A DNA stretch of 64,000 nucleotides, taken from NCBI GenBank assembly GCA_964234715.1, contig OZ174277.1; one strand, given 5' to 3'. Below are positions 8,091-50,405 of the stretch, one piece after another (the first letter of the stretch is position 1; each line of letters opens with the position of its first letter). The stretch is from Podarcis melisellensis. Taxonomy: Eukaryota. The notes beneath the pieces were generated by a model. It saw only the letters and a program-made list of their open reading frames with translations. It was not told the DNA's origin and did not search any database. A program made the translations under genes and the position numbers.

Positions 8091-8093
8091 ATA

Positions 8094-8323
8094 CAGTGGT
8101 ACCTCGGGTTAAGTACTTAATTTGTTCCGGAGGTCCGTTCTTAACCTGAAACTGTTCTTCACCTGAAGCACTACTTTACTAATGGGGCCTCCTGCCACCA
8201 GAGCACGATTTCTGTTCTCATCCTGAAGCAAAGTTCTTAACCCAAGGTACTATTTCTGGGTTAGCGGAGTCAGTAACCTGAAGTGCATGTAACCTGAAGT
8301 GTATGTAACCCAAGGTACCACTG
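8094..8323 (+). mobile_element. Tc1/mariner(Tigger)-type MITE
   Basis: TIR CAGTGGTACCT...AGGTACCACTG with TA duplication; same family at 21439 and 37168. Confidence 0.88.
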
Positions 8324-10442
8324 TACACTGAAAGAGAGAGAGATTTAATCCTTCAGTGACTTCTCTCTCAGTTGAAGGCTTTTTCGCTTTACTTTGGTGC
8401 ATTCGTAGTATTTTACCACTTGGTGGCACTATGTTACTAAAGAGAATACATGTGAGCTAAAGAAAAAAAAATTGAAGCCTCTCATACTCCTTAGAGGAAT
8501 TGAAGTGATCCAAGGATTTATTAAATGCAACCAAACTGTTTTCGTGCCTTCTGTCTTAAAATTTTACAATGTTATTTTTTGACAGTTTGAATCTTATCTG
8601 CCATTTTGATTCCACTTAGAAAGTATTTTGTGTTAGGTGATATATGCCCAGTGCCTGCTAGAAGCTAACTACCCTCGGATTGCCAAGTATTTTTCTATTC
8701 TATGCTTACCTGCACGTATATGTCAAGCTTCTTCAAGAGATGGCATCATAATTTGGCACTAGTTGCAAAGGTGTGTAAAATGGACTGTTTGCAGTATTTG
8801 CTCTCCTATCCTATTGTGAAAACAGTTGTTTTGTGAACTTCTACAAATGTATGTGGGGTAATCCAGTAGAAGAAGAAAACACCTCCACTTCCTGACTCAT
8901 ACAGTCATTCTTTGGGTTCCACTCACTTGTGTGAAGAAATACAAGAGGGGCAGGACCAATCCTGTGTACACTCAGACCAAGGACCAGCTGACAGAGGTCT
9001 GTTTCATCAGTTAAATCAAATCAGCAATCATAGTTGGAAAAGAAAGTCTTCCCATGAACATCTGCCTCACCACTGTCTAACAGGACACTAGACTAGATGG
9101 AGCTTTGGCTTAATGTAGCTGGGCCAATGTACACGGGATTTGACCTGCCTTTCTCGTTTTTCCTCACATGAGTGGAAGCCAAAGAGGGACAACACAAGTG
9201 AGGAAGTGGGGGTGCTCCTTATTCCACTAGATTACCCCACATACATTTGAAGAAGTTCAAAAAGTGATGTTTTTAATGTAGCCACATTCTTAGGTCAAGA
9301 TCAGATGTTCCTAACACGATGATATATAGGATGTGACACAAAGTGGGCTTAGGGTTTCTGCTATTTATACTCTTAAACCTTCCAGACCCTTGATTTGGGG
9401 GGGGAGGTGGAATTCAGTCACATACTGGCAAATTCAGGTTCCACAAGTAAAGCTGCTTTGGTGTTTGTTTCTTGTGAAACAAACCAGCTCTCCCCCCACC
9501 CACCCATTGTACTTTTTGCAATAAAGGAAAGTGATGAGGAAATTCACTGCAAAGTTTGAGGTAACATTTGCTTCATATAACCTACCCACAAACTTTATGC
9601 AAGCAAGTCAGGATGAATGCTCTATAAACAGGTTCTCTGGAAGCATCCTTAGTTGTTCTAGTAACTTTCTGGCACAGACGCTAAACATTTCCCTTTCAAA
9701 TCTCGTAACATTTATTTTACTGTAGTGTGAATCATTTCTCCTTCGTGTAAAAGCAGGCTAGGGAAAGGCAGAAGGTACTGTTAATCATTCCAAAGCATGT
9801 CCTGATGGCAAAACGAAAAGATCTGCAAAACAGGTTGATGAAGAGAGCATGATCATCAAGAATTGCTTTCAGCCTGCAGTTCTTGCCATCACCAGAAGAT
9901 GGCAAGAAGTTCATAACTATTATAGTCATTGCTGACCAAGCGATGCTTCATGCTTGCTGAACAGCAGCTGTCTAATGTGTTTTTGCTGCAGGTGTGCATG
10001 ATTGAGAAGGCCGGTCTTTTACACACAGGTGATGGTTTCCTAATCATATAGCAATGCATAACTGGTAGTCACAATTTCATAATTTGGCTTCAGTGTGGGA
10101 TTTTGCGATGAGCTTTCCCCAAACAAGTTAATTGTGGTGATTCCTGGAAGATGGTGAATATATATGCTGGGCAGATTTGTTTTGCTAAGATAATAATACC
10201 CAGTCATGCAATACCATTTATCAAGTTACAAAATACATAAATGTCAAGCGCTTTGGTATGCAGAAGTGATGCAAATGATTTCTGTGTGCTTGCAGCTTGG
10301 TTGATGTTATTATAGGGGGAATAACATGGCATAATGAAATGTCACTGGGAGAAACAGCATAAAAGAATAAATCTGTCATACTGGAGAAGAGGAGGAAGAT
10401 GTCAAGGAAAGAGGGAAACTTAGTACAAGGTTATGTCAAAGT

Positions 10443-10586: not shown

Positions 10587-11249
10587 TAACACTGGTTAAT
10601 TTTCATGTAATATTTCCCCCCTCCCATCTATCTATTTATCTATCTATCTATCTAATGAAGGAGAGGTAGAAGGAAACTGATTAACTGTGTGATTTGGTTC
10701 ACTTGGCTGCTTCAGAAATGGGCTAGTGATGGACTCTGTGGGGTGCAGGCCCCTGTCCCTTCCATCATGGACACAGCATCACTTTGGAGCTGAAAACACC
10801 CAGTTTACCTGATGCTTCTCTTCTTGATTAGGCAAATGACTTGAAGCCAGTCACCAGCCCAGATACATATGAACAAGACATAGTCAACAGATGGAAAGGA
10901 GGACCCTACTGATAGATTTATCTTGATGGTCTTTTCATCTTTAGTCTTCATTTGTGTAAAATGGGTACAAAACCAAGCCCTCCTCAACAGTGGTGATGAT
11001 ATTCTGGCTTACAGCAGAGCTTTCTTCACATCTTCCTTACAGAGAGAATTCAGTGTGCTACAAGACTCTATGTTGGCTTTGTGGCAAGAGATTAACAGGG
11101 CTGCTTCTTTGGAAACTTCTCCTCTGGTCAGGTGGAAGTAATATCTGCCCTCCTCATTATCTGCATAGAAGGATCAAACTGAAAGAAACAGCCACATGTC
11201 CTATTTTCTGCTTGAGCAGCATTCTGTTCATCTCCCCCCCCCCTTACAG

Positions 11250-11367
11250 GGATATGGAGTTGATGAGCACGCAGCCCTACAGGCTCGATGGGAAGAGGCA
11301 TCCAAAGAAACAATCAAAAGAACAACAAAGCCATGCCCTAAGTGTCATGTTCCAGTGGAAAAGGATG
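11250..11367 (+). CDS. PRKN: Parkin coding exon (human exon 11; REP element and start of RING2)
   Basis: [42 protein letters not shown] acceptor and G|GTAAGT donor. 118 nt, the same as human exon 11. Confidence 0.97.
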
Positions 11368-11624
11368 GTAAGTTTATTGATCAGTATTCAATACTGATCA
11401 ATACAGCTCGGGGGAGGAACGTCAGGCCCAGGGGTGAAATGTTGCACAAAAGCCTTTCTATTAGGCCCTTGGTCTCTCCCTGGACCCTCTGTCCCAAGCC
11501 ACACCCTCAAGCATAGTAAATTCTAAATGTTATATGCCCATTATTTTTATTTTTTGTCATCCATCCACTTTTGCCTATGAACTCATTTGCAATTTCTTAC
11601 TTTTGGTTTTGGTTTTTCTTCTAG

Positions 11625-11734
11625 GTGGATGCATGCATATGAAGTGTCCTCGGCCTCAGTGCAGATTTGAGTGGTGTTGGAACTGTAGCCTAGAGTGGAA
11701 CAGGACTTGCATGGGCGATCATTGGTTTGACTGA
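11625..11734 (+). CDS. PRKN: Parkin last coding exon (human exon 12; RING2 with catalytic Cys/His/Glu)
   Basis: [39 protein letters not shown] acceptor after a long T-tract; phase matches the previous exon; TGA at 11732-11734. Confidence 0.97.
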
Positions 11735-14800: not shown

Positions 14801-17800
14801 TCAGGCACTAATTCTTAGTTACAAAGTTCTTATAATCACCTGAAATGGAAACAGTAGAAGATGAGAAGGAAACAAACGTTGCTGATTTTCCAAGTAGAGA
14901 TGGAGTAGCCCTGCTTCCTTTTTCTCCCTCTGCTGTAGCATGATGGAAGGACAACCACCAGTTAATTGAAGGAGGAGCATGATGAAACTGGCTTCTCAGC
15001 AGGATGGATGAATCTTTTTCTGAGTTTCTCATTCTTCCAGTCTTCAGTTTGCCATATGACTGCAATTTTTTTTTCCAAGAACAAATATCCTCATAGTGTG
15101 CATTTCTCCTAATATGTGTATTTTAATACCATTTTGCTACCCATACACATTTTTGCAAGCCATACAATGCACCTTTGAATGTAACCTACTTTTTGTACAC
15201 TTTTTGTTTGGCAAACAGCACCACAAAATTCATGTTTAAGTTTGTGTACTGTTTCAAAAAGTGCAAGTTAGGTAAGTTTGCAGAAATATGTGAACGAAAC
15301 CAAATTTCTCCCCCATCCCTACTTCTCAGTAGATTTATGGTAGGTGGCCCTGCTTCTCTTTTCTTCCTGCTGCGGCCTGCTGAACATGTATCTGCCATTG
15401 AGCCCAATGTAGACTAATGTAGAAAAATCCTTATCCTAATTTCCAATATTTTGACATTGGCTTTGGAGTTTTAAGCATTAAAATGACAGGAGTGATGCCC
15501 TAAAATAGGGTGGCATTTCTCCACATATAGCAACGGTGTTGCTGCTCTCTTTGATAATTTTGTTGTGTAATCTTTGCACTTCCTCAAACTTTTTTCTCTG
15601 CAGAAAGTTAACTCTGAGAAAGTTAACACACTTTGAAAATTGCTAGAAGTTCTAACTCCCGCACTTCCAATAATTCCAAATGCTTGTGTTGTAAGAGTCC
15701 AAATTTAGGAGCACATATTTCATGCAAAAACTACATTTGCAGTCCAGTGCCAAGACATTTTTGAGTGAAGAGATGTTAACAGCTGAGTGAATGTGGCAAT
15801 CACACACATTTTATTTTTAGATTCAGCCTGCTAGGAACTGAATCATTAAAGAGGGAAGTGAAACATTTTGTAATATCCATTTTTCTTTTAGATTAATTCC
15901 TACTAATGGTGGGACCAGACACATAAATACAGGACATTGCTTGTGTTGTAATGTCACAATAGGAAGAAGGTTGCATCTTTTCACTTGGCTTGCCTATATA
16001 CGTGTTTACCATCCTGGCCCTTCATCCTGAGACTAGTGGGCTTCAGTCACAAAGCTATGCATTATGAGTAAACAGGTTGAACACTAGGTTCGAGTTGTTT
16101 TTGCTAAAAACAACTTCAGGAGAAGGGAAATTGGAGCAGGGAAGCAGCAGAGAGAAGGTGCTTAATCCTTTCACCACACACAGATTATCTGCTCCAAATC
16201 ACCCTCAGATGGTTGCACACACAAACATGTCACACAAACACATATTTTGAATTCTGCATACATAAAACAGTTTGGGAGGAAATCTGTTTAGAGCTTATAA
16301 ATGACAGGCAGGGGAAGAGTTAAGTACCTTCTCTTCTCCTTCAGTCCCCACACTGCTCTGCTTCAGATTCTCTCTCCCTAAAGCTGCTTTTCAAAAAAGA
16401 AAAAAAGAAAAAAGGCCAGCACTGGGGACTCTCACATTCATATTTGCATATATGGCAATGTGTAGTCAGTGTCTCTGTTATCAGTGCTCCAAAAACCTGC
16501 AAAACTTATTTAACCAAATAGGTCAGTGGGGTGGGGGAAAGGATATTACACCAATATTACACTAACATAAATTAAGAGAAAAAATTCTTAATATTGTGAT
16601 CTCTGATTGGTTTTCTAATTGCAGCTTACTTTAAAGTTTTATAACAGTTAGTGAATTCCAGTGATTAATTTCTTCATGCTAACACAGATTATGGTGAGTA
16701 TATTGAACCCTGAAGAAACCTACACAGCCAACTCTCAATAATCATTGATGTTTTTAAATTGAATTAGTCCTTGGTGTAATGCGAACCCTACAACAACAAG
16801 GGAATTATACAATGCAGTATTTAATTCTTGTAAATTTGGGCACAAGGCCGATTAAGGTGTAGCTGGGTGAAATAAGAGGCCTACTCAAAACCTCCAGTTC
16901 TTCAAGGCTTGTGCTTCCACACCCCAGTGGCACTTACTCTGGCCTGAGTGGAACAAATAGAGAATGAAGGTGCCATTTCCTGCAGCACATTACAGAGGGG
17001 GATAGCTGTCCTTCTAATGTCAAGGTATCTACCTCTGACATTCTTTCAGGTCTTAGCTCCCTCCATCTTCTCTTCAGGGGAAAGAGTATGCTGTGACAAG
17101 TATTGATTGAATTCTTCTACAATTGTATCCTGCTCTTCCTTCAAGATGGTTATAATTGAGCAAGATCAGGTAGATCAGAGAGGATGGGGTAGAGGTATAT
17201 GTCTCTCATTATGAAACAGACTTCAACTTTTACATTTTAGTTAGCAATACTCTACTAACCGTTTTGGACAGTATTTAATGTTCCATTTAAATGCTACAGT
17301 AAGGCTAAATCAATGGGATATGTTCCCAACTCTTAACACTTCAACCTCTCATTGTTTCCTATAGCAACAGCATATATTCATCTCTGGTATTGATGCTTAG
17401 AGTAAATGCAGCCTAGGAAAAATATATTGGGCCCAATAGTCTGGAATATTTTTATGTGCTGAATTTTGGGTATAAGGCAGAATGAGAATGATGCATGCAT
17501 ATATGATGTGTGTTAAAGGGGAAAGTAAAGTCAACATTTGCAGCTTAGTCCTAGTCCTAGTCCGAAGTGTGGAAAGTGGGTCAAAGAACAGACAATTACA
17601 TACACTAACCATAGTTATAATTTAATGCATTACAATACAAAAATGAATCAATTCAACACCTACAGGTCATTTAAAACACACCAGAAGTTTCAGGGAATAT
17701 AAAATAATGCTCATAGTTCAATGAACAATACCCAGTACCAATAATATATATATTATACCCACAATAAGAGAATCACATGAAGTTTTACCTCTTCTTTTAT

Positions 17801-18268
17801 TTAAAAAATATTTATTACAAATCCCAGGCAATTTGCTTACTTGCTTGCTTCCTTGCTTGCTTGTCTGGGTGCAAAAACAGGAAATGAGGACAAAATAAAT
17901 ATATTCTAGAAGCTCATCTGCTATAAACACTTTTTATTTCTACAAGTGCATCGCCATGACAATAGCACCATGACAATTAAAGGCTGGGAAAGGGAGCACA
18001 AAACTAGACAGGCATGAAAACCTCCTAATTAAATTATAACTTGTGATTAATATAGTAGGACTTAAAACAATTACTAATGATTGATATAGGAGACTTAAAA
18101 GAGCATAACAAGCACGTTCCGTAGATGTGATCAACTATGCATTTAAGAACAGGTCAAAGTACAATGTTTTCCTGAACTCAATGTGAGCTGAACATTCTAA
18201 GGTGATGAGTGAATGTCTTAGTATTAGAATGGTTTGTGCAGTATCATGTACAGAAGCAAAGCTTAGAA

Positions 18269-18329
18269 GCAAGACTTCCCATCAGGCCACAGTCATGTGC
18301 AAGACTTCCCATCAAGCCACAGTCATGTG
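18269..18329. repeat. 2 x 30-bp tandem repeat in U3 (enhancer-like)
   Basis: GCAAGACTTCCCATCARGCCACAGTCATGT, two copies with one mismatch. Confidence 0.9.
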
Positions 18330-18350
18330 TAGAATCACAGCATCCCATCA

Positions 18351-18371
18351 TCTCCCCTTTCTTTTTTATTT
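18351..18371 (-). promoter_or_regulatory. Polypurine tract preceding the 3' LTR
   Basis: AAATAAAAAAGAAAGGGGAGA immediately followed by TG (start of U3 at 18350). Confidence 0.85.
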
Positions 18372-18374
18372 AAT

Positions 18375-18533
18375 GGTGAGTGGGACAAAAATACATCGGG
18401 ATACGTGGTTTGCCAGCGCATACCTGAAATAATTCAGCCCACCGATGTTGTTGTGTGAGTTCAGGGTGAATGGGACAAAAAATACCTCGGGATACGTGGT
18501 TTGCCAGCGCATGCCCGAAATAATTCTGCCCAC
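18375..18533 (-). repeat. Two ~68-bp direct repeats (18375-18442, 18465-18533) between env stop and PPT; each is self-complementary
   Basis: Read directly: GTGGGCWGAATTATTTCRGGYATGCGCTGGCAAACCACGTATCCCGAKGTATTTTT(T)GTCCCAYTCACC, two copies. Confidence 0.92.
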
Positions 18534-18547
18534 ATCTCCCCTAACGT

Positions 18548-20025
18548 TTACTGTTGGTGCTGCCATTTCGCAAAGTAGGCAGCAATGATTTTATTGGGTG
18601 GCTGAGGAGGAGAAAAACACTGAGACCAAAGGCGTATGAGACCAGGGATGCATTGGATGAAGCAACATAGCAAAATTAATATACATACTATGACAATAGT
18701 ATATTGAAAAAGATTGCGAAGCCAATTCAAATTTGGCAACCAACCAGTGAGCCACTGGGTAAACGAATCCCAGAGGCCAGGAAGTCCAAAGTCCTGTTGA
18801 TGTGATATGTGAGATTTTGCAAATGAGAAATTTGTTTTTGAATAGCTTTAGAATTGTCAGTAATATTAAAACAGCACATGTCATCCACTTGTTCACAGCC
18901 ATAATGATGAAGCATCAGCAAATAATCAATTGCAGCGCGATTCTGTAAGAGTCCATGTTGGAGTTCACTCTGCTCTTTATTCAAAAGGTGAAGGGCTTGT
19001 GAGGTAAAGTTCAGAGCTTTTGCTGCGGAGCAAGCTAAAGCATTAATATTCCTGCTATTCCGTACAGCCAATCCAGGGACTCCTAAGAGAGAGACAGCTA
19101 GAGAAATATATTCAGATCTACTAGGGAGAGAAACAGAATCATCACAATCATTAGTCAATTCTACAGAGCGTCGATATTGAGAGCGGAATAAATGATGCTT
19201 CTTGGGTAAAATGATGGACAAACAGCTTAAGCAACAAGGTGTGCAATGGCTGATGTTTGCCGGAATATAATTGAATGTATAGCCTGGGCACGACCAGAAC
19301 CAGCCTTCAGGCAGCTCTGTATATTTATATATATATGAAATATATACATAATTAGAGCAATTAAAATTGTTATCCTTGCCCATTTTCACACAGTTGGTTT
19401 TTGTCCATTTGACCATACGGGCACAAGTGGCATTAGAGGAGGCCACGTATGGGGTTAACAAATCAATTGCCAGAGATGGGCGTCGGCGCAGTTGGTTACC
19501 CCAGTTATGGTAACCGGAATAACCAAGAGTGCGAAGAGAATCATTTTGGGGTAGGGATGAATAAAACTAGGTATCATTTTGCATATCAAAAGGGTCATGG
19601 CAAACAGGGATAAGGCAAGAACCAAGGATTTGACCTATAGATACCTGTTGAGTTAGGCAAAAAGAAGAAACATTGAGGGTTTTTGCAAAAGATTCCCACA
19701 CATTTATTGGTGTGGAATCACCGATGTTAGGAGCGGAAGCAGAGAGGGGCAAAAACAAAGCACTGAAAATGAGCACTATCATGGAATTTATGTTGAGGCA
19801 AGAAATGAGGCACAGAAGCAAATTATCAGGGGTTGCTTCCAGGTGCTGTTCCTTTCTAAACTGTTCAGCTTGAAGTGAGAGTGATTTTATTTGGCCCCAC
19901 GTCACTGGTTCATTACGATTTCCCCGCTTGCGAGTCCTGGGGGGGCCGGGCGTCGCATCCTGGGCGATCTGCAGTTGACCGTCGAACTGTGGTATCGGAT
20001 TCTGCAGGGCCTGTTGCCATGCCAT
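18548..20025 (-). pseudogene. env: Retroviral env (~492 codons reconstructed): Rec/Rem-like signal peptide plus alpharetrovirus-type SU/TM; premature TAG at 19567-19569 and 1-nt frameshift at ~18797
   Basis: ORFs 19567-20088 and 18727-19461 are in frame across one TAG; ORF 18548-18739 supplies the TM anchor and tail. Motifs: NVWESFAKTLNVSSFCL, LPEGWFWSC, QYRR|SV, Cys-flanked internal fusion peptide, LQNRAAIDYLL (18916-18948), CEQVDDMCC (18871-18897), CCFIQCIP. Confidence 0.93.
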
Positions 20026-20110
20026 GATAGAGGCGGATGCAGCGTGCGGGAACCCAGCGAGCACCCTGTGGAGTAGAAACTGCAGCATAACCCTTCCCCC
20101 AGGTAATCAC
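19913..20110 (-). pseudogene. pol: Retroviral integrase C-terminal remnant (beta/alpha class II type)
   Basis: VITWGKGYAAVSTPQGARWVPARCIR matches the class II IN motif (W)GRGYACV...WVPxRxIR. It contains the env splice acceptor TTTCTACTCCACAG (AG at 20067-20066). Confidence 0.85.
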
Positions 20111-20123
20111 GTTGGGGTCACCA
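20106..20123 (-). promoter_or_regulatory. Primer-binding site complementary to tRNA-Trp
   Basis: TGGTGACCCCAACGTGAT, 17/18 identical to the ASLV tRNA-Trp PBS TGGTGACCCCGACGTGAT, 4 nt after a ...CCTTTCA LTR end. Confidence 0.88.
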
Positions 20124-20679
20124 GATTTGAAAGGATAACCTTGCCTCCACCCACTTCCTTCCTTGCTTAAGATGTGTACCCTTATAAAACTAACACTACT
20201 ACTTAGATTAACTATTTACGATAATCTAAATCTGAGTACATAGATAATTCTAGCCTAGCTTAATTAACCTGATTGTGCTCAGAAAGGTAGGGGAAGGAAA
20301 AATACTAAAGGACAGCTGGAGTGAGGAAGGAAGAGGCAGGTCTGTATGGAGAAGTGTTGTAAAAGAAATAAAATGTAAACATTTCAATTTTTTATTTTAT
20401 TTGAAAAACACATCCACCTTGAAAGATAAAAGATACACTGGATGTTTGCTTCACATCACTCCTGAGAGTCCACCATTAGCACTCTGGTCATTTGCCCTTT
20501 CAGATGGCTCAACTGATAAAGTGTATAGGTTCTGAAATTAATGTAAACTATTATCTTGTAATCATTACTGGTTTGGTTTTACAGTTTTAAAGTAACACAT
20601 TACCATGCAATACCAAAAGAGACATATGTTTTAATATAATTTTATACAATTATTTATTAATTCCATCCTAACCCCTTTC

Positions 20680-21400
20680 TTTTTTTTGTAACCTTTTATT
20701 CATTTTCTATAACCAAACCACAAAAAAAGAAAAACAAAAACAAACAACACACACCAAAGAAAAAAAGACAACATCAACCAAAACAAAACACATGAACAAA
20801 CCAGAATACAAACATTAATTAACAACAAATAACGGTTGACTTCCCTCCATCTCGGTTTTGGGTTATGTAAATATTAAATCCATTCTGCAGTTTTTCATTT
20901 TATACCGTCTACACATTGCAAGGGTTATATTAAACCTACTGTTGGTACATCACCCCTGTGAAATTGCAAAAAATGTATAAGACTGGTGATAAAAGGTGTT
21001 GGAAGTGTAAATCTAAAGAGGGAAGTTTCTACCACATGTGGTGGAAATGTTAAGAAGTTAAAAAAAAATTGGGAATCCATATACAATGAACTGAAAAAAA
21101 TACTTAAATACACTTTTGTTAAAAAGCCTGAAGCCTTCCTTCTGGGAATGATCGGAGATGAGATTAAGAAAGAAGATCATATAATGTTTCAATACGCAAC
21201 TGTAGCTGCCAGGATTCTGTTAGCACAAAATTGGAAAACCCCAAATATCCCGACCATTAAAGATTGGCAAATTAAATTATTTGAATATATGGATTTGGCA
21301 AAAATGACGCAAAACATCAGACAGCAAAAAGGTACAAAGTTTATTGACGATTGGACCAAATTCATAACATATATGGAAACAAATTCTAGAGATATAAAAA
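20680..21400 (-). mobile_element. 5'-truncated, 5'-inverted L1 LINE (3'UTR and poly(A) on -, 20680-20944; ORF2 C-terminus on +, 20941-21400)
   Basis: ORF2 CCHC region RWYITP...CWKC...FYHMWWKC and KKPEAFLLG...AARILLAQNWK. AATAAA plus poly(A) on the - strand. TSD CCATCCTAACC(T)CCTTTC at 20663-20679 and 21401-21418. Confidence 0.9.
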
Positions 21401-21438
21401 CCATCCTAACCTCCTTTCAATGAGTTTAGGATAGAGTA

Positions 21439-21680
21439 CAGTGGAACCTCGCGTTACGTACCATCCTCCTTACAAACGCTTCGGGTAACAGAGCTCCGCT
21501 AACCTGGAAGTAGGTCTCCTGGTAGTGAACTTTGCCCTGGGATGCGAGCGGAAGTCATGCGCCGGTGGCACGGCGGCAGCAGGAAGCCCCATTAGCGAAA
21601 GCAGGCCTGAGGTTAAGAATGGTTTTGGGTTAAGAACGGACCTCCAGAACGAATTAAGTTCGTAACCGGAGGTACCACTG
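21439..21680 (-). mobile_element. Tc1/mariner-type MITE
   Basis: TA-CAGTGGAACCTC...GAGGTACCACTG-TA; inverted relative to the copy at 8094. Confidence 0.88.
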
Positions 21681-22803
21681 TATATCATTCTATTCTGCCC
21701 ATACTTTCACAACACCTCTGAGAAGTAGGCTAGACTGAGTGATGCAGTAACTGGCTCAAGGTTCCTTCCTACCTGAGGAATTTAATCTGGAAATCAGATG
21801 GTCGGTGGGTAGGTATATATAATGTGGCAGCAAATCAAGTGTGTTGGACATGAGTCTAGTCTTCATATTATCTGGTTGCTTAGTACTGGCTTTGACACTG
21901 GGTTAATTTTACTTAAATTAGGGGGAAAGGCCATATGAGCCATAGCAAGAATATAGATTTCTATCTTCTGATAGTGGCCAGGCGTATTATTACTCAGGGA
22001 GGTTCACAAACAGGATATTATGATGATGGTGATATTGATCCCATTAATCCCCAGCATCTGCTAGGCAGAAGGATCTTTGAAAACTCTGGCTATTCTTTCA
22101 GCTGCTATAGCTAGTAGTCATGGTATATTTATCTGGCAGGCATTCATCTTTTTAATGTCTTTTTTTGCTAGAGGCCATTACAATATCCTGTGGTGATGGA
22201 GTGCTGCCCAATTATCCAGTTTATAAAGAAGTCCTTCCTTTTGCTTGTTTTCAATCTGCTGCTTGTCAATTTCATTATATGTTCCTGGGCTTTTGCATTT
22301 TGAGAATAAATAAATTGGGTTGGATCCGTGTGAAGAGCTTCCTGTTCTCCCAGGCTTTTTAATTACAATCTATGGAGTGCTTCTGTTTTGGCATCAAGTT
22401 CACCCTTGCTGTGTTTTATCCTGGTTTTAGTTGTTCTGGTTTTTGTTTTTTTTTACGGGGCTTTTTCCTTTATGAGGTTTTTAAAGGGTTTTTTATTGTG
22501 AATTGTATTGTGTATTTTACTGTCTATGTAAACTGGCCAGATTTTTTTGTGGGGGGAGGATATAAACAATGGCAAGAAGAAGAATCTAGTTTTCCCCATT
22601 ATGCATCAAGTATGCTCATTGCAATAAATAGGACAAATGGCTATTATTCCATGAAGCTACCTTTATTTCTGAGCCCCACCTGTTTGATAATAGTTCACTC
22701 AAAGCCTGTACAACTTCTGTCCACCAAGCCTAACTCATCTTTATGGCCACATCTGGCCAGGTTTCCAGCACCCCACTGTCTGAGTGGTCTCAAGGGGCAT
22801 TGG

Positions 22804-22956: not shown

Positions 22957-23970
22957 GGTGTTGGTAATGTCACTGAAGCCTATGATGTCAACAAACCATT
23001 TACTAACCAGCTTTGAAGCTGTACCCATCTCTTAAAAGTGGGTTCCTTGCATTTTGATCAGTAATATGCCTAATAAGAAAGGTGAAATACACCTAAATAT
23101 AATACAAATTCATGTACAATCAAAATAAAGCTTAAACGGTTAAACCTAAACAATTAGTTGCTAACTAGACAGTCTTAAGATTTATTATTATATAAAAAGC
23201 AGATATAAATGTTAATGGATGAGGTTTACCAGATCTGTTATTTTGAAATTGCTATGTATTGTATCGGAGAAAGACTCTAAAACAGAAAATTTACATTATG
23301 ACATCGATCCTATAATTCCCAATTCCTTGCCCAGTATTGATTATTTTACAAAATATTTTTGCTGTTTTCAGCATACTGAAACTCCTAATGACTGCTTCCA
23401 ACGGCTCCATGTAGGTATTACATAGAATTTGGGATAAGATATTTCCAAGTAAACGTACATTGGATTGGGCTGCATCTGGAGTCCAGAGCCAAAAGCTTCC
23501 ACGCGCACCTTTAGCTCTCTAAAAGTAATCAGATACCTTTGTCATTCTGAGTAATGGTAACACACTAAATCTCTTTTCCTTTTTATTTCGAACATTTGTA
23601 CTGCACTTTTTGGCCAAAAGGGCTCCCAGAGTGCTTTGCATACAAACGAAATAAGAAAGTCCCTACCCACAGGCTTATAATCTTGAAAGAAAAATTACAT
23701 GACACACAAGGGAAGAGTGATGCAGAGGGATGGGGAAATATATCACAGATTTCTAAACAGTGTACCAGGTAGCAGAGTTCCAGGGGCATGGCGTGTCTGA
23801 TGGAGCTGGGCGTCTAGCAAAGCTGATATAATGAGCCCCGTCGCTCCCTTTGTCTCTCCCTCTGAGGCAGCCTAATGGAGTGGCTGCTCCCAGGTGAGGG
23901 GAGAGGAGGCCTGATGGAGCTGACCTCTCACAGCTGTTGATGATCTTTCCAGGTGATGAATAAGGATTTA

Positions 23971-24880
23971 ATTTGGAGGCCACGCTCCTCTGGGCAGGAC
24001 ACGAGGCTCTTTCTGCAAGAGACGTGCGTGCGTCTTAGCAGAGAGGAAGGAAAAGATGCTCCACCAAGGAGACTGGCTTCTGCAACAGCTGAAAGCCAAG
24101 TGTGCATTTGGGGGGGGGGTGCTTGTGTCTGTTTGGCGGGGCAGCCCCCTTTTTTCCTCTCTCCCTCGTTCTGCCGCTTTGCAAGGAAGTGACTGAGAGG
24201 AGCGTTTTCCTTTTGCGAAGGGACCCACCCCGAGGGCGGAGCCTGCCTTCCTCTTTGCTCTCGCCCAGCGCCGATGCCGAGGGCTGCCTTGCGCCAGGTA
24301 CGTGTCCCGGCAACTCTTCTTCGCAGCTTCCTTCTGGGGAAGGGAGAGGGGAGGGCAGCCCTGGTCCTGTCTGAGCGCAGAAGCGTCTCCAGTGGATGCA
24401 AGCTTAGGTCTCAGCAGGGAGAGAGTTTTGGGTGCTTTGGAGCCAGCCGTGTCAGTGGAAAGAGCTCGCTCGCATTAGTGGGATTTTCCTTCTGCTCTCT
24501 CGAGTCCGTATCTCCATTCATTGTGTGGGGCGGGGGGAGGCCGGGCGGCTGGAGGCAACGAGCATCTTCCTGCTACATGTTGGCTCCCTTGTGCTCCGTG
24601 CAGCATGCTCTGCTCCAGCTTCCCTTCTTCCCCGTTTCCATGGAAACACCAGGCCAGACCATCGTCACCATATAGACTTGTGTGTTTCGAATGGGTGCGT
24701 TTGTGTCAGGGTCGGACACGCGTTGGTTGCCTTCTCACGTTCGGCGAGGAGAAGGTCGGGGAGGGAACGAGGTTGCTCAGGAAACGGCCGCTTTGCTGAA
24801 GTTGCTTTGCCATCCACCAACGGGAGGTGGTGGTTGTCTAAAATAATCCGCTTTGGCTGATGAAATGCAACAGGGTGCTC
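23971..24880 (+). promoter_or_regulatory. AGPAT4: CpG-island promoter, distal copy, with putative non-coding exon 1 ending at 24297
   Basis: CpG-rich in a CpG-poor background. ETS AGGAAGTG at 24184, GC box GGGCGG at 24234-24239, donor CAG|GTACGT at 24297/24298, palindromic X-box at 24634-24647. Upstream of the first coding exon. Confidence 0.65.
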
Positions 24881-27800
24881 AAGGAGACGCAGCCTTTCTC
24901 TCCCCAGATGTCTCTCCCTAGATCTGTAATTGTGGATTCAGCATTTTAGAGCCAAGGGTGGGAATTGCTGCTTGCCTGTGTCAAGTTGTCCCAGAATGGA
25001 GGAGTTTTTCCTGCCACTGTCAAGAATGTTTGCTAGTGCTGCTTCTAGGGCAGCAAAAAAAAAAAAACCAACAAAAACCTGACAGTGATCTACCCATTGT
25101 CATTGGATGGAGAAGGAGGGTGCATGGGGTGGGTGGATTGCCCAGATTTGTTGAGCTTTGCTTTTTTTTTCTTCTTTTTTTTTTTGCAGAGGATTGCCCA
25201 GAGTTCTTCAGCTTCTATTTGTTAACATTTGGTAAACTTTATTTAATCCCACGATCAATAAAGGTCCCGCGATCTACCAGGATCAGCCAACCTGTAGATC
25301 ACAATCTGTTGCTTGGACATTTCTGTTCTAGGGTATTTTTGTTGCAAAACTTTGTGGTTTTGTGTGAACTGTTATTGATTACTGGTATTGGTGGCAAGAT
25401 AACATAATGCATCATGTGATAATAAGGATTGTCTAAACTTAAGAATGAGTAAAATTCCTGTTCCTTTTGTTTAGGACCTTAACATTCTTGGGTTCTTTCT
25501 GTGAAATTATTCCCAAGGTTTAAAGGAGCAGAACAGAGCAGCTTCCATAGGGTTATTCAAGCTGCCCTTTGTGGCTCCTTTTGAACTTCAGAGGTTTTTG
25601 AACTCCAGGGATGCAATGCATCTTAATTTAAATCAGTGTAGTTAATGGAACATGCATAGCATCCTATGCAGAAGCCCCTCATAGTTATTAGCCCATTAAC
25701 TTCAGTGGGCAGCTGTGACCAACTGCAAAGAGCCAGGCTGTACTCTAGCTGAAGTTTGGCTATGCTGCCTTAACTGACTAGAGAAATTTACTTAAAGGCA
25801 ACTTTCAGGTCACAGCTGCACAGGTGTTTACTTTTAGGGAGGGCAACTGCATACCTCAAATAATCTCTGCATTTCTCAAAGTACTGCACCTTCAGAATAT
25901 GCTGGTTGTGGGCTGGTTGAACTGTAGGCAGAATAGCTGCTGAGTTGGTAATGCAATCTGCTCTGTATTTGTTTGTTAAAAGCAATACTTCCTGTAGCTT
26001 TTGTTCAACACTGCTTTGATGTTAAACCAGGAAGTGCAGAAAGCAACCATGGAAACAATCTTAGTGTTCTGGGATAGATCTTTGTCCTATTTGACTTATA
26101 CAGGAGAGCTTAGTGGATATTACATTTCCACCCTCCCCACCACTCGATGTCTGCAGCTCAGGGAGAAGCCACAATGCCCTCAAGGCTTGTGTCTGCACCT
26201 GGGGTAGTGAAATGGAATTGGTGCTAGTCCAAAAACATTTTGCTTCCTGGAGTCCAAATGGTACTGCAGCCCCCCACCCACCCACAGAGGTATTGCTGCA
26301 CCATTCAGACACCAACCAAGCCTTGCCTTTATCTTCTACCCCTGCCCCAGTGCCACCTGAAGCAAGTCTATTCAGTGTGATGCATGCCAGCACTGGCCTT
26401 GGTTGGGATACATTTTGACCTTGTTTGCATGTAGCACTAAACCATAGCTCAGCATATGAGAATGAGTTGCAATAAGCTGGGTAGTGCACTCCCTTTCTGT
26501 CTTTGGCATGGTTACAAGGAGCTTGGAAGCTTTTTCTGTTTTAGATTAACCACTGTTTGTGATTTTTACTGAAACCAAGACAAGCTGTTTTGGTTAGTTT
26601 ATGAATCTGATTTGTTTTTGTTAACCACAGTTTAGGGTTTTGAATGCAATGTTAAACTGTATTTGAAGCCCTGCAACTTATGCAGGGCAGTGGTGGAGGG
26701 GAGGAGTCCTAAGATGAGGGTGAATATAAACACTGGTGGAGCAACAAAACATGAGGCATAAAGCAGCAGCTGTTAACACGAGAGAGGAGAGTCCCAGGCA
26801 GGAAATGAAGGGGAGACTACACAGACGATCATATGACCAAGACACATGAAAGAGACATGGAGTGAGCAAGTGGGTGAGTTTGGGAGAGTAATAGAAAAAC
26901 GTCATGGAAGAATGTGAGCAAAGATGTGTGTATGCATGAGTGGAGGAAAGGATATGAATGTGCAGGTGATACAGCAAACTGAGTGAAAGGGGCTTGTGCA
27001 GTGGAGACAGCGTTGCTGTGTAAGTGGGAGGAAGAAAATGGAATGGAGAGGCAATGAGCAGAGTGAAGCTGTAACCTGCAAAGGAGCTGCTGGCGTGGCA
27101 GATTGCCAGGCTCTTCATACAAGGTACAGCAAGGGAAGCCATAGGGAATTAAGGCAGTAAGGACTAGGGGCTGGCTTCCCCAGAGGCGGGCAAGAGGAGC
27201 ACTCTAGAGACATTTGGGGCTCTCAGGATGAGAAAAAAGGGAGTAAAAGAAAACTCTCACACTAAGATTCATCTAGAATGGAGGCGCAGCATGCAAGCCA
27301 GAAGTTTGCTAGCTCATTTCTGTAATGCTAAACCATAGCTAAACATGGCCAGAAGAACATGTGGTTCTCCAGATGTTGTTGGACTCCACTCCAACCCCTC
27401 TCATCCTTGACCACTGTTTATAATGGCTGGGGCTGATGGGAGTCGGAGGACTCCTGGTAGAGGGAGGCTGGTCCACACTGATGGACAATGGGTCGCCAGG
27501 GTTAAAGGCAGAGGTCTTTCACAATTCTCCCTGGAGATGCAGGAGATTCAGTGGGGGACCTTCTGCACCTAAAGCTGGTGCTCTACTGAGCTATGGCTCT
27601 GACCTTGGTGAGTATCAAACACAGGAACCTGGCTAAAGGTTTTCTGAAGGGATGGAATAGAAGGAGGCCCTTCACTCAGTCCTCCCACCCTCACAGGCAC
27701 ACTTGGATGCAGGAGAGAGCCTTGTTGGTGGCTACTCCCAAACTTTGGTACTCCTTCCCTAGAGAAACTAGACTGGCTCCCTCCTTGTCCTTCTGCCAGC

Positions 27801-32500: not shown

Positions 32501-32921
32501 CCTTGCTCTGAAACTCCTAATGACCATTCCCAGCAGCTTTATGTAGATATTACAGTAATTGGTTCTGGAGTCTCATACGGCACCTTATAGTATAGCCACC
32601 AGGGGCCCTTGAAGATTTTACCTTTAATGTGGCCATCTTTCGCACACATTTATGGGTGTGAGCTCTACTGAACACAGCAGGACTTACTTCCAAGTGACCA
32701 TACAATGGCTTGGGGCCTTGGACTGTATCTGGTGTCCAGAGCCAAAACCTTCCACACACCAGGTGGTGTGTAGTCAGAGATTTGTCATTCTGGGAAATGG
32801 TCGCACTCTAAATGTTTCCTTTTGTTAATGAACTTTCCAGGTGATGAGTAGTGGGGGGGGGGCGCATTTCCCCGTTTGTAATACTCACGGGCCATGTTTC
32901 ATTTAAATGAATAATGATCTG

Positions 32922-33937
32922 ATTTGGAGGCCACGCTCCTCTGGGCAGGACACGAGGCTCTTTCTGCAAGAGACGTGCGTGCGTCTTAGCAGAGGGGAAG
33001 GAAAAGATGCTCCACCAAGGAGACTGGCTTCTGCCACAGCTGAAAGCCAAGTGTGTATTTAGGGGGGGGTCTGCCTGTGTCTGTTTGGCGGGGCTTTGAG
33101 AAGGACAGAGGGAAGCAGCCCCCTTTTTTGTTTCTCTCCCTCCGGCGCTTTGCAAGGAAGTGACTGAGAGGAGCGTCAGCAAAGGAGCCTGTTTTCCTTT
33201 TGCGAAGGGACCCACCCCGAGGGCGGAGCCTGCCTTCCCTCCCCTCGCCGCTCGTGTCCCGCTTTTGCTCTCGCCACGCGCCGCTGCCGAGGGCTGCCTT
33301 GCGCCAGGTACGTGTCCCGGCAACTCTTCTTCGCAGCTTCCTTCTGGGGAAGGGAGAGGGGAGGGCAGCCCTGGTCCTCTCTGAGCGCAGAAGCGTCTCC
33401 AGTGGATGCAAGCTTAGGTTTCAGCAGGGAGAGGGTTTTGGGTGCTTTGGAGCCGGCCGTGTCCGTGGAAGAGCTCGCTCGCATTAGTGGGATTTTCCTC
33501 CTGCTCTCTCGCGTCCGTATCTCCATTCATTGTGTGTGGGGGGCGGGGGGAGGCCGGGCAGCTGGAGGCAACGAGCATCTTCCTGCTACATGTTGGCTCC
33601 CTTGTGCTCCGTGCAGCATGCTCTGCTCCAGCTTCCCTTCTTCCCCGTTTCCATGGAAACACCAGACCATCGTCACCATATAGACTTCAGAATGACACCC
33701 GGCAATGTCCCTTGTGTGTTTCGGATGGGTGCGTTTGTGTCAGGGTCGGACACGCGTTGGTTGCCTTCTCACGTTCGGCGAGGAGAAGGTGGGGGAGGGA
33801 ACGGGGTTGCCCAGGAAAGCAGACATTTGTGACATTCTATGGACGGCCGCTTTGCTGAAGTTGCTTTGCCATCCACCAACGGGAGGTGGTGGTTGTCTAA
33901 ATAATGAGCTTTGGCTGATGAAATGCAACAGGGTGCT
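32922..33937 (+). promoter_or_regulatory. AGPAT4: CpG-island promoter, proximal copy, with putative non-coding exon 1 ending at 33307
   Basis: Near-identical to 23971-24880. ETS at 33155, GC box at 33221-33226, donor CAG|GTACGT at 33307/33308, X-box at 33647-33660. Confidence 0.7.
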
Positions 33938-34345
33938 CTAGCCTGCCTCTCCCCAGATCGTTGCTTCCACATTTTACAGCCAAGGGAGGAAATGGCCGGT
34001 GGGAATTGCTGCTCGACTGTGTGTCAAGTTGTGCCTGAATGAAGGGGCTTTCCTTGCCTCTGTCAAGAATGTTTGCTAGTGCTGCTTAAGACCAGGGCTG
34101 AGGAACCTGCGGCTGGCCAAATTTTGTTGCACTCCCGACTCGACTCAGCCCCTGACCCCCGGCCCCTGATCAGGCATGATGGGAGTTGCAGTCTGTTGAC
34201 AACTGCTGGACCACTAACCCTCTCCCTGAGTGGGTGATGACACAGCTGTTGGAGCAGATGTTTAGGTCCATTGGGCACTGCAGTTCTACAGAATAACATT
34301 TGCGTCCGACATGTACAAACAAGGAGAGAAGGATACTCTTGTAAG

Positions 34346-37012: not shown

Positions 37013-37167
37013 TGTCTTATAGAAAAAATGAAAAGCACAAAACTTGAAACTAAATTTATTTTAATTTGCAAGTAATACAACAAGCTTTGCCTGTGGATGG
37101 TGTATATTAACAAAGGCCACAAAGTTTTTCTTTGACAAACTTTGCTAAAAGGATAAAATAGGTGGTA

Positions 37168-37409
37168 CAGTGGTACCTCGGGCTAAGTGCTTAATTCGTT
37201 CCGGAGGTCCGTTCTTAACCTGAAACTGTTCTTAACCTGAAGCACCACTTTACCTAATGGGGCCTCCTGCTGCTGCCGTGCCGCAGGAGCACGATTTCTG
37301 TTCTCATCCTGAAGCAAAGATCTTAACCTGAAGCACTATTTCTGGGTTAGCGGAGTCTGTAACCTGAAGCGTATGTAACCTGAAGCGTGTGTAACCCGAG
37401 GTACCACTG
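37168..37409 (+). mobile_element. Tc1/mariner-type MITE
   Basis: TA-CAGTGGTACCTCGGG...CCCGAGGTACCACTG-TA; highly similar to 8094-8323. Confidence 0.9.
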
Positions 37410-38475
37410 TACTGAGAAAACAGGGTTTTACCCTCATAAGTAAGTTTTAATAAATCTTATTGTAACATTCTGGGTTTGTCTCTCTAGAAATATCTTTTAA
37501 GAGCTATAACCTTCTGCTGGTGATATCTGCCAAGAAGCATCATGTCTTTCTGTCGGGCACGGCAGTAGAGGGGAAGGAAAGGAAGCAGTACATGGTGTTC
37601 ACAGTATTGACCTTGAAAGTGAAAGGAAGAGCTAGCATTGGAAATAAAGCAATAGGTAGTGTTGTGGAGCTCTTATAGAAAGTAAACATGAGCCCCTTAA
37701 CTTGTGGGTGTTCAGATGGGGGGGACGGGACCACAAACTCCTTTAACACTTACTGTTTGGAAATGGCAACGTTTCTATGTTCAAGTTTCTGAAGTGGAGT
37801 TTTAATGGGAAAAGGATAGAAATAGATCATATTTTAAACTATTTCATATATTTCCTATCCAAGGTTTTAGAGTCTGCAGAGGTAACCAATTTAAAGTGCT
37901 TTTTCAAGTTGTTCCTTTTTTGTCTTGTCAGCGCTGTATCACTGGCAGGTAAGAGCAAAGTTCTGAAAATGTTTGTCTGTTTTATCAAAACGCATGCAGT
38001 GACCTCTTAACGGGGTCTGCATCCATTAAGGGTGTTAGTAACATGTATCTTTGTGTGTGTGTGTCTGAAAAATGTCACATTTTCTTCTTTTCTTAATGCC
38101 ATTTCTACCTTTTTAGAACAAAGTTATAAATGTAGCTTTATATAGCTGCTTTCTATACTTCCCATATTTCCCTCCATCTGTAAAAAAACCCCTGCTATAA
38201 TCTGGAACGTGTGTTGAAGGGTATGACCCAGTGACCATAGACAACGCCATAACTAGTGCTACATTTCAGAGATGGTTCCAATATTGCTATGTATCATCTA
38301 ATGTTAATTTTGTGAGATTTGCCATGGATGTGGAAAGTGGAACGCATCTGTAATAGCTTTTTGTGAGGGTGACATTTAAATACGTTGCTGCTCTCAGGTA
38401 GAAAAGAGTTGGATTCATCACAGTAACATGAGTTTAACCTTTTTAAAAACAAAAAAATTCTCATCTTTTTTGCAG

Positions 38476-43429: not shown

Positions 43430-43831
43430 GGGATGCGGGTGTAGCCTAAACCACTGAACCTCTGAGGGATGCGGGTGTAGCCTAAACCACTGAACCTCTG
43501 AGGCTGATCAGGAGGTCATGGTTCGAATCCCCATGACTGGGTGAGCTCCTGTTGCTCTGTCCCAGCTCCTGCCAACCTAGCAGATAGAAAGCATGTCAGT
43601 GTAAGTAGAGAAATAGGTACCGCTGCGGTGGGAAGATAAATGGTGTTTCCATGCGCTCTGGTTTCCATCGCGGTGTTCCGTTGCACCAGAAGCGGTTTAG
43701 TCCTGCTGGCCACATAATCCGGACAGCTGTCTGTGGACAAACGCAGGCTCCCTCAGCCTGAAAGTGAGATGAGCACCGCAACCCCAGAGTTGCCTTTACT
43801 GGACTTAACCGTCCAGGGTTCCTTCACCTTA
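43430..43831 (+). mobile_element. Sauria SINE with tandemly duplicated 36-bp head
   Basis: B-box GGTTCGAATCC, body shared with the other Sauria SINE copies, ACCTT tail, TSD CCCTAAACTATCA. Confidence 0.88.
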
Positions 43832-46800
43832 CCCTAAACTATCAAACTGGGGGGAATTGCTGTGATGAGTGACAATGCATCCAAACATGGTATCAGCCTC
43901 AATCTTATGCTGATGGAATGGAAGGAGGTGGATTGGGGTTAAAGGGAAAAATGTGTACTGTATAAGCACCTGTGTTATAAGCAACTAAGAGCATTGGTGT
44001 GTGTAGGGGGAGGAATTGTGTGTGTGTGTTTTAATGACTCTGGGCTTATGAATCAGAGGATCATTTAGTTCAACCCCCTGCAATGCAGGAATATGCAGTG
44101 GCCCCTTAAGGGGCCTTGGTGTCATCAGCACCACACACACTGTAACCAACTTTGTGAGATTGGCTGTTTGATGTGTTCCTTTATTTTTCAGGGAAGTTTT
44201 TGAACTTTTCTGTCCCTCTCTCATTTTGTACCTTTCCTTCTGTTTGACTTTGAAATCTCTCTCTCTCAAACTCTGTAGCATCAGGAATGAGATTTCCTAA
44301 ACGGTATTTTATCCCAGTTATAGTTTTCTGTTGTTTGTTTGTTTGTTTGTTTGTTTGTGTGTGTGTATTTTGAAAGGATACTGAAAATCTGTAGCATATA
44401 TTCCCCACAATACCATCTGGTTGACTTCTCTGGAAATAGCTATTTTCAGATCAATTGCTGGGAAGTTGCTATGAAAAGGTTTTCCATCTCAGTGTAGCGG
44501 TGATCTCAGGTGATGTCTGCAGCCAGCCAGATGAAGCTTTTAATGAAAATGGTAGTTTTTCTGGGGAATGGGAAGGGTGTGCCCAGCATACGATTTGGCT
44601 TACATAAAATGTCTCTCTCCGTATCATAACAGGGTAATAAAATATGGAGCTCCAAAGCTTTTAGAATATTGGAAGTTATGTGCAAATGGGAATCTCCTTT
44701 TTGTGCTCTAAAATACATTCTAGTACCTGTCATACTACATGACATAAACGGAACAATCAAAATGGAAAATTCTTCAGGGTAAATTTCTTCATGTAGATGT
44801 AGAGCCATTCATGCTGAAGAAACAAGTTAGGCTAGGCATGACAGCAGTACATGTTTTGTCTAGAGGTGTTACTTGTGACATTTGAAGTGGCAAAGCTGGA
44901 GAGTAGTAAAACTCAGCCAGTCCTCCCTTAAGGTAGTAAGGAAAGGTTAGCAGAATGCTTAAAATATTTGTCATTGGAGCAAACATATGTCCCACTTTGT
45001 GCAATCTTCTGAAAAGGTTTATTTGGCTGTTTTTTAGGAATTGAAAAAAAAATAGCCTGGCAACTTCCAAGATCTATTTTCTAGTTATGCCACATTAATT
45101 CTGGCTTAAGGGATGGGGAAAGGAGGCCAACTCTTCAAATGTATCTAAATTGTTCAACATAGCTGAGATAATTTATGTCGGCTAATTAGGCTGCTGTCCT
45201 AGTTTAACTCTGTGAAGTTCTCTCTCTCTTTCTTTCTCTACTTTTCCCTGTGAGTTCTTATAAGACAGTGTTCCTCATGAACTTGGAGGTAAAACTGCTA
45301 TTACAGAATCATTTATTCATCTCAATATAGTGAGTCTTGCTTAAGTTTCCCACTCTTCTGCTGCCATGCCCTCTGGAACCCTTTTGCCATATTTTTTTCC
45401 CCTGCACTCTGGAGTTTTTGCACCAGGGCTTGCATGAATCAGAATTAGTGTCCAGCTGGTGAAAGGGTCAGGCAGTTACTTTCTGGAGTACAAAAGTTAT
45501 TTGGGAGCCCTTTCTTCCTCCATTGACCTTGGGCAGTCCATACATGTGAGCTGGTCTATAGAACTGAAATAAATACCCCATGTCTTTTATGTGCACATGC
45601 ATGTGTGAGAGAAGTATTACTTAAATATATGAGTGTTGTGCTTGAAGCTAAAGTGTGTATCCACAATAATCTGACAGGAAATTGGGCAATCTGTTATCTT
45701 TCTTTAAAACCTTTACTTGAAGTCAGTGCTAGTAAGCTCCTGGATTGTGTTGGTTTTGAAGATGCTCATCTCCCCCACTCTTCCCCATGTGTACAGTGAA
45801 GGTTTGACTATAAATAATAAGATTTAATTAATGCTTCTTGAATTTTTATCCCTTAAAAAAAAACTGACTGCAAATGAGTGTGTGCTGTTGCATTTTTCTT
45901 GTACTCTTTTCTCATTCATGGGCTCATAGATAAACTGAATAAACAACAATTACTTGGCAAATAATTACTCATCCCTGAAGGCGCTGATTGAATACAGCAG
46001 GGGAGCAAAAGTTGCAGTGGTAAAAACATTATTTGGCTGGTAGTGTGGATGTAGAAAATAGGAGAAGGAAGTTGAACACTTTTCTGTGTTTTGGCACATT
46101 CTGGTTTTGGACACAACAGGGAACAGCAATGCATCTGGGCCAAATACCGCAGGATTTCATGTGGCATATAGTCGTCCGAGTGTACCTTCCACATCACATT
46201 TAAATACATGCATTTTGTTTTTTAATTGCTCTACATTACATCCCTTGTTTGAAACACTAGCCATGCCCAGGAACTACATGTGATGAGGATTACTTGGGAG
46301 GAATACAGGGAATAAATACAACCTCCATCCTATTTTCTGCCCTTCATGAGAATGAGGCTGAAGGTCTGAAGCAGTGAGCCTCAATTAACAGTTAAAGACT
46401 TTGAGGCAGACAAATCCACGGAGAGTTGTTATATTTATTTATTTAATTAACCTACATACCACTCTTCAACAGAAAATATCAAGGTAGTTTTATAATAAAA
46501 TATTTATTCTCTTTAAAAAACAACAACATTCAAAGCAGTGGCAGCTTTTCTTTTCTTTTTTGTGGATGGTATACAAAATAGACTTTTTTTGGCTATGACA
46601 GCATCTTCCCTTGTCCTCTCCCCATTTTTTGTAAGTTTTCTTTCACTGTGTTCAAAATATTCACCTCAATACCTGGAGTGTGGGGGTGATGGTAGCTTGT
46701 ACGACACACATGATAATAAACCAGTAGAATGCAAGTTTAAAATTCAACATGAGGAGCAAAGCCATCAGGTAAGCAAACGGATAAATCTGAATCCCTTAAT

Positions 46801-47553
46801 TCTGAGACCTGAATCATTCATGGTACTAAATTTGTGTCTGTTCAAATAAAAAGCTTCGGCCTAATGGAATATGTGGGCTTCCTGTTTATGGCACCCACTT
46901 TCTTTTGCTCCCCGCTTCTGAAGAAACTTGAGTACAAAGAGTGCTGCTTACAGAAGGATAATTATGCAGTCATTTTACTATTCTGCAGAGTAACACCTGA
47001 TTTAAATGTCATTTTTTCAAGTGCACTTGAGAGAACTATTTTGCGCTTCAATCGGGGCTGATATTCTACGTGGCTTTAATCCTTAGTAGGGGAAATGCTT
47101 TTTGTTTTGCTTTTTTGCATTCACAGTTGTTTCAGGCACTAAAATCAAATGTTGTTTGAAGTTTCTGTATCCAAATTCTGAAGAAGGTGATTTGTGCTTA
47201 CTCTTGACAGTGTATATTTTCATGTCTGAACACTCTTTTGATACATTTTTAAAGTACGTACCAAAATATTAAATATCTGTAGTAGGCTGGTGGCAAATGT
47301 CCCTTTCTTGGGAAATAAGCTTGAGGGAAGTGGTGGGCAACCAGATCCAGGCACTCTTAGATGCAGCTAATTTTTCTAGATCTGCTTCTTTTGGTCTGGT
47401 TTTGGCAGTAAGGGGGAAAAAAACCATTTGTTGCCTTTCTATCAGGAGAAAGATGTGGGGAAGGTAACCCTTCTGATTTCTCCTTGATCTTTTAGTGGTT
47501 TCTGATACTATTGATCTTCATATCCATCAGGAACAGTTGTCTGAGATGGCAGT

Positions 47554-50382: not shown

Positions 50383-50405
50383 GTAAACCATTTGGCAGTA
50401 GAGTA

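Follow-up and report, generated by a model that had tools for sequence, protein, structure and literature searches.

An unbroken Rec-related Env leader in a deleted retroviral relic of Podarcis melisellensis is likely an ordinary signal peptide spared by chance

Rev-like proteins have been described in only three betaretroviruses (PMC5568270). The 98-aa signal peptide (SP) of MMTV is cut from either Env or Rem, undergoes a p97 extraction that requires W57-Q58, and exports RNA via the RmRE (PMC8725593), while JSRV Rej acts mostly on translation and the virus also has a CTE (PMC3185594). The HML-2 SP, with 87 residues common to Rec, is nucleolar and neither shuttles nor exports (PMC2649029). As for the envelopes themselves, a review holds that gamma-type Env leaders are short and that leader length separates gamma-type from beta-type (PMC9967133).

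Here, we consider a long leader of this sort from the lizard P. melisellensis, which lies on the minus strand of a 64,000-nucleotide stretch of DNA (the whole of this analysed stretch being referred to as the window). A preliminary description had proposed that the locus could still yield a functional RNA-export peptide. Our analysis favors, with a probability of about 0.85, a different reading, in which a class II endogenous retrovirus (ERV) present in many copies has left its ordinary Env signal peptide here, unbroken likely by chance within a deleted copy that is likely silent. The features of the locus are collected in Table 1.

Table 1. Coordinates within the window of the relic and its neighboring genes
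Feature	Position	Strand	Description
PBS	20106..20123	-	same motif after 5' LTR in other family copies
Deletion junction	20106..20109	-	TGAT, 4-nt microhomology; PBS end joined to integrase tail
Integrase tail, last 64 codons	19913..20107	-	Pfam IN_DBD_C E 1.8e-4
Predicted env splice acceptor	20065..20080	-	pyrimidine tract and CAG/G, 40 nt before ATG
Env leader (signal peptide), 96-98 aa	19732..20025	-	basic cluster 30-37, TWG-helix core 42-75, hydrophobic end 69-92
SU/TM, dead, alpharetrovirus-like (avian gamma) type	18548..19731	-	TAG at codon 153 and a frameshift at about codon 409
ISD and CX6CC of TM	18948-18871	-	sequence
3' UTR direct repeat	18375..18533	-	2 x 69 nt, 91% alike, long hairpin per unit
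Polypurine tract	18351..18367	-	directly before LTR start
3' LTR fragment	17976..18350	-	first 375 of ~550 nt, 96.8% to complete family LTR
Parkin last coding exons	11169-11731	+	host gene on the opposite strand
AGPAT-type acyltransferase exons	49897-58931	+	host gene on the opposite strand

The relic starts at 20126, 3 nt upstream of an 18-nt primer-binding site (PBS) of the tRNA-Trp type, as in ASLV. The 5' LTR is absent, with family LTRs matching the window upstream only at 20126-20102, and both the stretch upstream of the element (20126-20674) and the flank downstream of the LTR fragment are unique within the host genome. Missing from this copy are gag, pro, and most of pol, deleted at the PBS; all of the full-leader copies (13/13) align from 20109 onward, with pol sequence upstream in each. 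The integrase tail is identical in length in 11/13 other copies and is overlapped, in a different frame, by env codons 1-38, and the predicted env acceptor is conserved in 4/4 copies compared. Two other readings of the upstream end were rejected. The PBS-integrase join is not a splice, as there is no donor and the nearest AG is missed by 6 nt, nor does the flank upstream represent another LTR, being unique in the genome and present in organism C, described below, without the junction. At the opposite end, the 3' LTR fragment is without CCAAT boxes, AATAAA, R, and U5, and there is no family-LTR match past 375 nt; complete family LTRs measure ~535-645 nt and carry the CCAAT boxes and AATAAA in the portion missing here. 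No target-site duplication was seen around the relic.

Such an arrangement would fit a faulty plus-strand transfer in which the microhomology brought the PBS and the integrase tail together, deletions of this origin being described for HIV (PMC12657518). Both LTR ends would have been lost at or after insertion, with env decaying after these losses. In the ancestral virus, the leader was presumably translated from spliced env RNA and would have guided Env into the ER before being cut near residue 96-98; it may then have been extracted from the membrane and have reached the nucleolus, like the MMTV, HERV-K, and JSRV leaders. Elsewhere in the family, the letters right after the PBS differ in L032, L033, L035, L040, L044, and L050, and several copies are shortened inside, which suggests that strand-transfer errors are frequent at that point.

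The relic lies antisense between the last exons of parkin and the AGPAT-type acyltransferase gene, which by synteny is presumably AGPAT4. Upstream of the AGPAT-type gene, a CpG-rich 1.1-kb island is duplicated 9 kb apart (23956-25044 and 32907-34087), its duplicates being 82% alike overall and 96% in blocks, and this is possibly a duplicated promoter. An LTR pair was rejected for the same 24-25 kb and 33-34 kb repeat, as no retroviral domain occurs in the frames scanned between. Moreover, the window contains two families of short dispersed repeats, one at 8092-8333, 21433-21683, and 37166-37419, and another at 43482-43833, 47547-47917, 50393-50758, and 51360-51689, presumably MITE-like and SINE-like, respectively.

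The 98-codon frame reported in the preliminary description holds up. It opens at ATG 20025 (minus strand) in the context ATCATGG, with MAWQQ...PPRTRKRGNRNEPVTWGQIKSLSLQAEQ...TPDNLLLCLISCL...IVLIFSALFLPLSASA, and continues for 152 codons before the TAG. Both lesions do lie downstream of the leader, namely this TAG at codon 153 (19569-19567) and the frameshift at about codon 409 (~18800). Hydrophobic stretches are located at residues 69-79 and 81-91 (Kyte-Doolittle 2.6). As for the cleavage placed near residues 96-98, an ASA motif is present, but position 98 is less likely to be the site, with Pro99 at +1. Proline at +1 usually blocks signal peptidase, and because Pro99 follows the ASA motif, the leader is likelier to be cut at 96 or 97 than at 98.

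Comparison with the Rec profile, which the preliminary description had put forward, supports homology between this Env signal peptide and the Rec/Env leader of HERV-K. The Pfam family HERV-K_REC (PF15695) matches the window leader at residues 37-84 with E 4e-4 and 20.8 bits, a score below the curated cut-off of 27.5 bits, and the basic cluster (residues 30-37) is outside the matched stretch. Rec-type leaders of 89-100 aa were aligned from reptile relatives, and 7/7 match HERV-K_REC (best E 3e-6); these seven, from lacertid, iguanian, and turtle genomes, share 17 invariant columns, including R34, T42-W43-G44, and K47. In the reciprocal search, a profile of the seven leaders found 145 representatives among 1.84 billion, and 76/135 of those newly found match HERV-K_REC at E <= 0.001, including primate ERVK3-1 and a bat retroviral Env of the beta type. 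When PF15695 was run over the lizard's own genome, 0/5 candidates matched, the match being too weak for such a search. Since the relatives and the reciprocal profile search both match HERV-K_REC, the leader core is, judged by its sequence, a common class II Env-leader motif. That the likeness to Rec is one of chance, belonging to any generic long signal peptide, would agree with the Pfam score lying under its cut-off and with a profile search in which no PDB match to the leader is better than E 0.47. Against this, the seven matching relatives and the representatives recovered in the reciprocal search appear largely to have refuted such a reading already, and we regard it as scarcely credible.

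Behind the leader, the family has a beta-like pol and an Env of another kind. The pol of a paralogue matches HERV-K RT at E 2.6e-128, and the paralogue integrase gives E 2e-66 with MMTV-length entries versus E 1e-43 with RSV-length entries, which by their PDB codes presumably come from those two viruses. The SU/TM had been treated as of the HERV-K kind, though the best match is instead to the alpharetrovirus type, the TM of an open paralogue having ASLV TM as its best PDB match (E 3e-14). In the TM of the family, an ISD is followed by CX6CC (LQNRAAIDYLL...CEQVDDMCC), and an internal fusion peptide with two flanking cysteines comes after the cleavage site (NDC...YISLAVSLLGVPGLAV...LAC). A cysteine-flanked internal fusion peptide, together with ISD and CX6CC, constitutes the marks of avian gamma-type Env (PMC3758190). 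The short canonical signal peptide given for alpha-like Envs (PMC9967133) is not what these leaders show, with all seven in the long range stated above.

The closest named protein is from Podarcis lilfordi (90%), and full-length relatives are found in turtles, iguanian, anguid, and cordylid lizards, rattlesnake, alligator, and caecilian. Proteins from turtle, Sceloporus, Anolis, and Podarcis have the long leader, which is absent from the models of several other relatives. This SU/TM also occurs downstream of a short leader of unrelated sequence (P0002, 72%), and unrelated envelopes can carry the Rec-type leader (P0051 and P0131). Because the leader overlaps the integrase end, it likely travels with the beta-like pol backbone, and the SU/TM was likely swapped in from alpharetrovirus-like stock. 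As read from these protein and genome sequences, the viruses of the lizard/turtle clade combine a beta-like pol with a long Rec-type leader placed ahead of an alpharetrovirus-type SU/TM. We found no description of this chimera in the open-access literature searched, nor in passages of PMC13568524, 10.1101/2021.11.05.467493, and 10.1101/2024.03.17.585361.

Several gene models also touch the env leader region. The Podarcis model P0022, for an Ig-like gene, enters a paralogue at the predicted env acceptor point, and host exons are joined to the leader region in P0022, P0070, and P0088, the latter two being a periphilin-1 isoform and a protein resembling sugar transporters, respectively. Host transcripts may thus be captured at the env acceptor.

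We then turn to whether survival of the leader is special. Preservation beyond that of SU/TM was not borne out, decay of the leader being what its length would predict, for lesions and private changes alike. If two lesions fall at random in 491 codons, both miss the first 98 with a probability of 0.64, and an intact leader here is likely what chance would give. Among 13 copies (the window copy and 12 others, with L039 omitted as it matches only to ~codon 210), 3/17 lesions fall in the leader versus 3.4 expected (binomial p = 1.0). Private changes of the window copy number three in the 294-nt leader and 14 in the 1176 nt of SU/TM (Fisher p = 1.0). Residue-altering ones make up 1/3 in the leader versus 11/14 in SU/TM (Fisher p = 0.19), this being a weak trend toward the idea of the preliminary description. 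Between copies, pN/pS is 0.16-0.34 for the leader and 0.15-0.42 for SU, and this reflects selection during viral replication, not at the window site; the SU/TM border used for this lies at codon 310, ~24 codons beyond the actual one, without consequence for the leader-versus-rest comparison.

Within the host genome, there are 56 matches to the family. Unbroken leaders are found in 10/13 of the other full-leader copies and an unbroken 491-codon env in 4/13, and several other copies retain LTR pairs that are 96.7-98.9% alike; any family product would therefore be independent of the window locus. Leader codons 1-66 are missing in 13/30 loci, 12 of which share one junction or a near variant of it. 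Here, an amplified deletion variant (L018-L030) has RT sequence joined to leader codon 67 and keeps the hydrophobic end and SU/TM, most members with an in-frame Met at codon 82. As a separate observation, ~32/56 family matches are on a single contig (G000 C19, 38.8 Mb), a clustering that would be compatible with a W chromosome serving as a refuge for ERVs.

The insertion site was also compared in two related organisms. Organism B, represented by the contigs of one sample in two runs (X4 and X5), differs by 1.4% in the flank. One of its contigs covers 20066-20714, including the PBS-integrase junction, and another links the unique left flank at 17967 to 20057 across ~759 other letters, the two overlapping by 30 letters in run X5. 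On the simplest reading, organism B appears to share the insertion but to have lost env together with the entire leader, the joint resting on 30-39 letters of a repeated stretch in one sample, with its middle flagged as not known. Organism C, which differs by 3.9%, has a flank that ends at 20141 and continues into other sequence, and is probably without the insertion. A further sample, X1, shows no difference in the flanks and may itself be the one from which the window derives. Co-option would have kept the orthologous site under selection, and what is found instead is apparent loss in B and apparent absence in C. Together with the lack of excess preservation, the locus therefore does not conform to a domesticated ERV.

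Could the locus nonetheless make an export peptide? For this, a host antisense promoter would have to transcribe it, the env acceptor be spliced, and a released nucleolar Rem/Rej-like peptide act on the RNAs of other copies. None of the acceptor, ATG context, basic cluster, W43 core, or hydrophobic end is disrupted, and therefore a transcript that enters by splicing from farther upstream would give the peptide. Moreover, antisense transcription could start from the CpG-rich island at 24.0-25.0 kb, 4 kb upstream on the same strand. AATAAA hexamers are present downstream (18981, 18595, and 17938), and the 54 additional SU codons before the stop would permit cleavage. The MMTV SP, whether from Env or Rem, is active in trans (PMC8725593), and the private leader changes are slightly less residue-altering, as noted. 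However, the locus has lost both the viral promoter and the polyA signal, and with no 5' LTR, an LTR-driven spliced RNA is not expected from it. A stop at codon 153 would lie within the long transcript, the leader shows no excess preservation, and organism B appears to have lost it at this very site. Nor is this copy needed, given the other unbroken leaders and the several copies with both LTRs. A classical leucine-rich NES pattern is found at residues 11-20 only, not in the Rec-aligned helix (43-72). Homology to Rec does not imply export, because the HML-2 SP has none (PMC2649029). We thus consider expression of an acting peptide from this locus very improbable, and an ordinary, likely silent signal-peptide frame remains the preferred reading.

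At the level of the family, the leader might have been a Rev-like regulator of the reptile virus, either as the SP or through a Rec-like spliced RNA, binding hairpins in the 3' UTR. The invariant columns in the seven leaders speak for this, as does the predicted helix 43-60 (pLDDT 84-86), although the overall AlphaFold model of the leader is weak (mean pLDDT 67, pTM 0.39). In MMTV, W57-Q58 is needed for p97 extraction (PMC8725593), and W43 may be its equivalent, by inference and not by alignment. In addition, 11 gene models from Caretta run straight from the leader's hydrophobic end into the SU/TM cleavage site and so omit the SP cut site, like Rec, but these joins may be genomic deletions. 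The Caretta caretta models P0029-P0037, P0040, P0042, P0044, and P0046 end soon after the join and would be Rec-like if it is a splice. Less favorably, the basic cluster RTRKRGNR is weak, with 5/8 basic (R/K) residues and a net charge of +1 over residues 1-67; it is weaker than the turtle RKRRRR form, although its R34 is invariant in 7/7 leaders. Some relatives have only 3 in 8, and at least five R/K are found in only 17/77 related leaders. The helix lacks the classical NES pattern, and a strong donor was not seen at the end of the lizard leader.

The conserved hairpins lie in the env/LTR region, which is where response elements are located (PMC5568270). That of the 3' UTR has a folding z of -4.5, with 96.7% of cells paired and three pairs with two-sided change, the pair-count control being not significant (122/500), and there was no Rfam match within 17800-20800. 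We regard the twin hairpins as a candidate cis-acting export or response element, though a duplicated hairpin fits a protein-free element equally well, for instance a CTE (PMC3185594) or the direct repeats of RSV. On balance, a regulatory role for the leader in the replicating virus is possible but doubtful. Equally tentative is the wider proposal that lizards and turtles host a complex-retrovirus clade with a working Rec/Rem-like leader regulator acting on these hairpins. If true, Rev-like regulation would long predate, and extend well beyond, the three mammalian betaretroviruses in which it is known and, because the leader overlaps pol, would survive env swaps.

The window locus itself is an ordinary relic, and the interest lies with the family. 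Its leader-bearing clade departs from the rule of short gamma-type leaders (PMC9967133), and the leader core in 145 protein clusters offers tests of whether the ancestral job was RNA export, translation control, or a role like that of the HML-2 SP.

Among known systems, HERV-K(HML-2) Env SP/Rec resembles the lizard leader in length (96 versus 96-98 aa), in the order of basic cluster, TW-x-Q-x-K helix, and hydrophobic end, in a beta-like pol, and in the overlap of the leader with the integrase end. In contrast, the lizard leader falls under the Pfam cut-off, with a shorter basic cluster outside the matched stretch, its Env is of the alpharetrovirus type and not the beta type, and no Rec-like donor was seen in the lizard copies. 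Compared without direct alignment, MMTV SP/Rem and JSRV SP/Rej likewise have an Env leader of ~98 aa, the ARM-helix-h order, and structured env/LTR RNA, with JSRV differing in the mostly translational action of Rej and the CTE beside it (PMC3185594). With the Envs of ASLV and the alpha-like group (lizards, amphibians, and bats), our family has in common ISD and CX6CC, a cysteine-flanked internal fusion peptide, no CXXC seen in SU, a Trp-type PBS, and direct repeats in the 3' UTR. However, leaders in the alpha-like Envs are ~21-64 aa (PMC9967133) and in bat CHIRalphaEnv 16-32 aa (PMC13568524), and the pol here is nearer to beta than to RSV. Recombinant class II ERVs (MPMV, python ERV, and the avian TgERV type) similarly carry an env of the gamma type that was swapped in alongside a class II pol (PMC3758190), whereas the env here is the avian-gamma variant and the long Rec-type leader has been kept.
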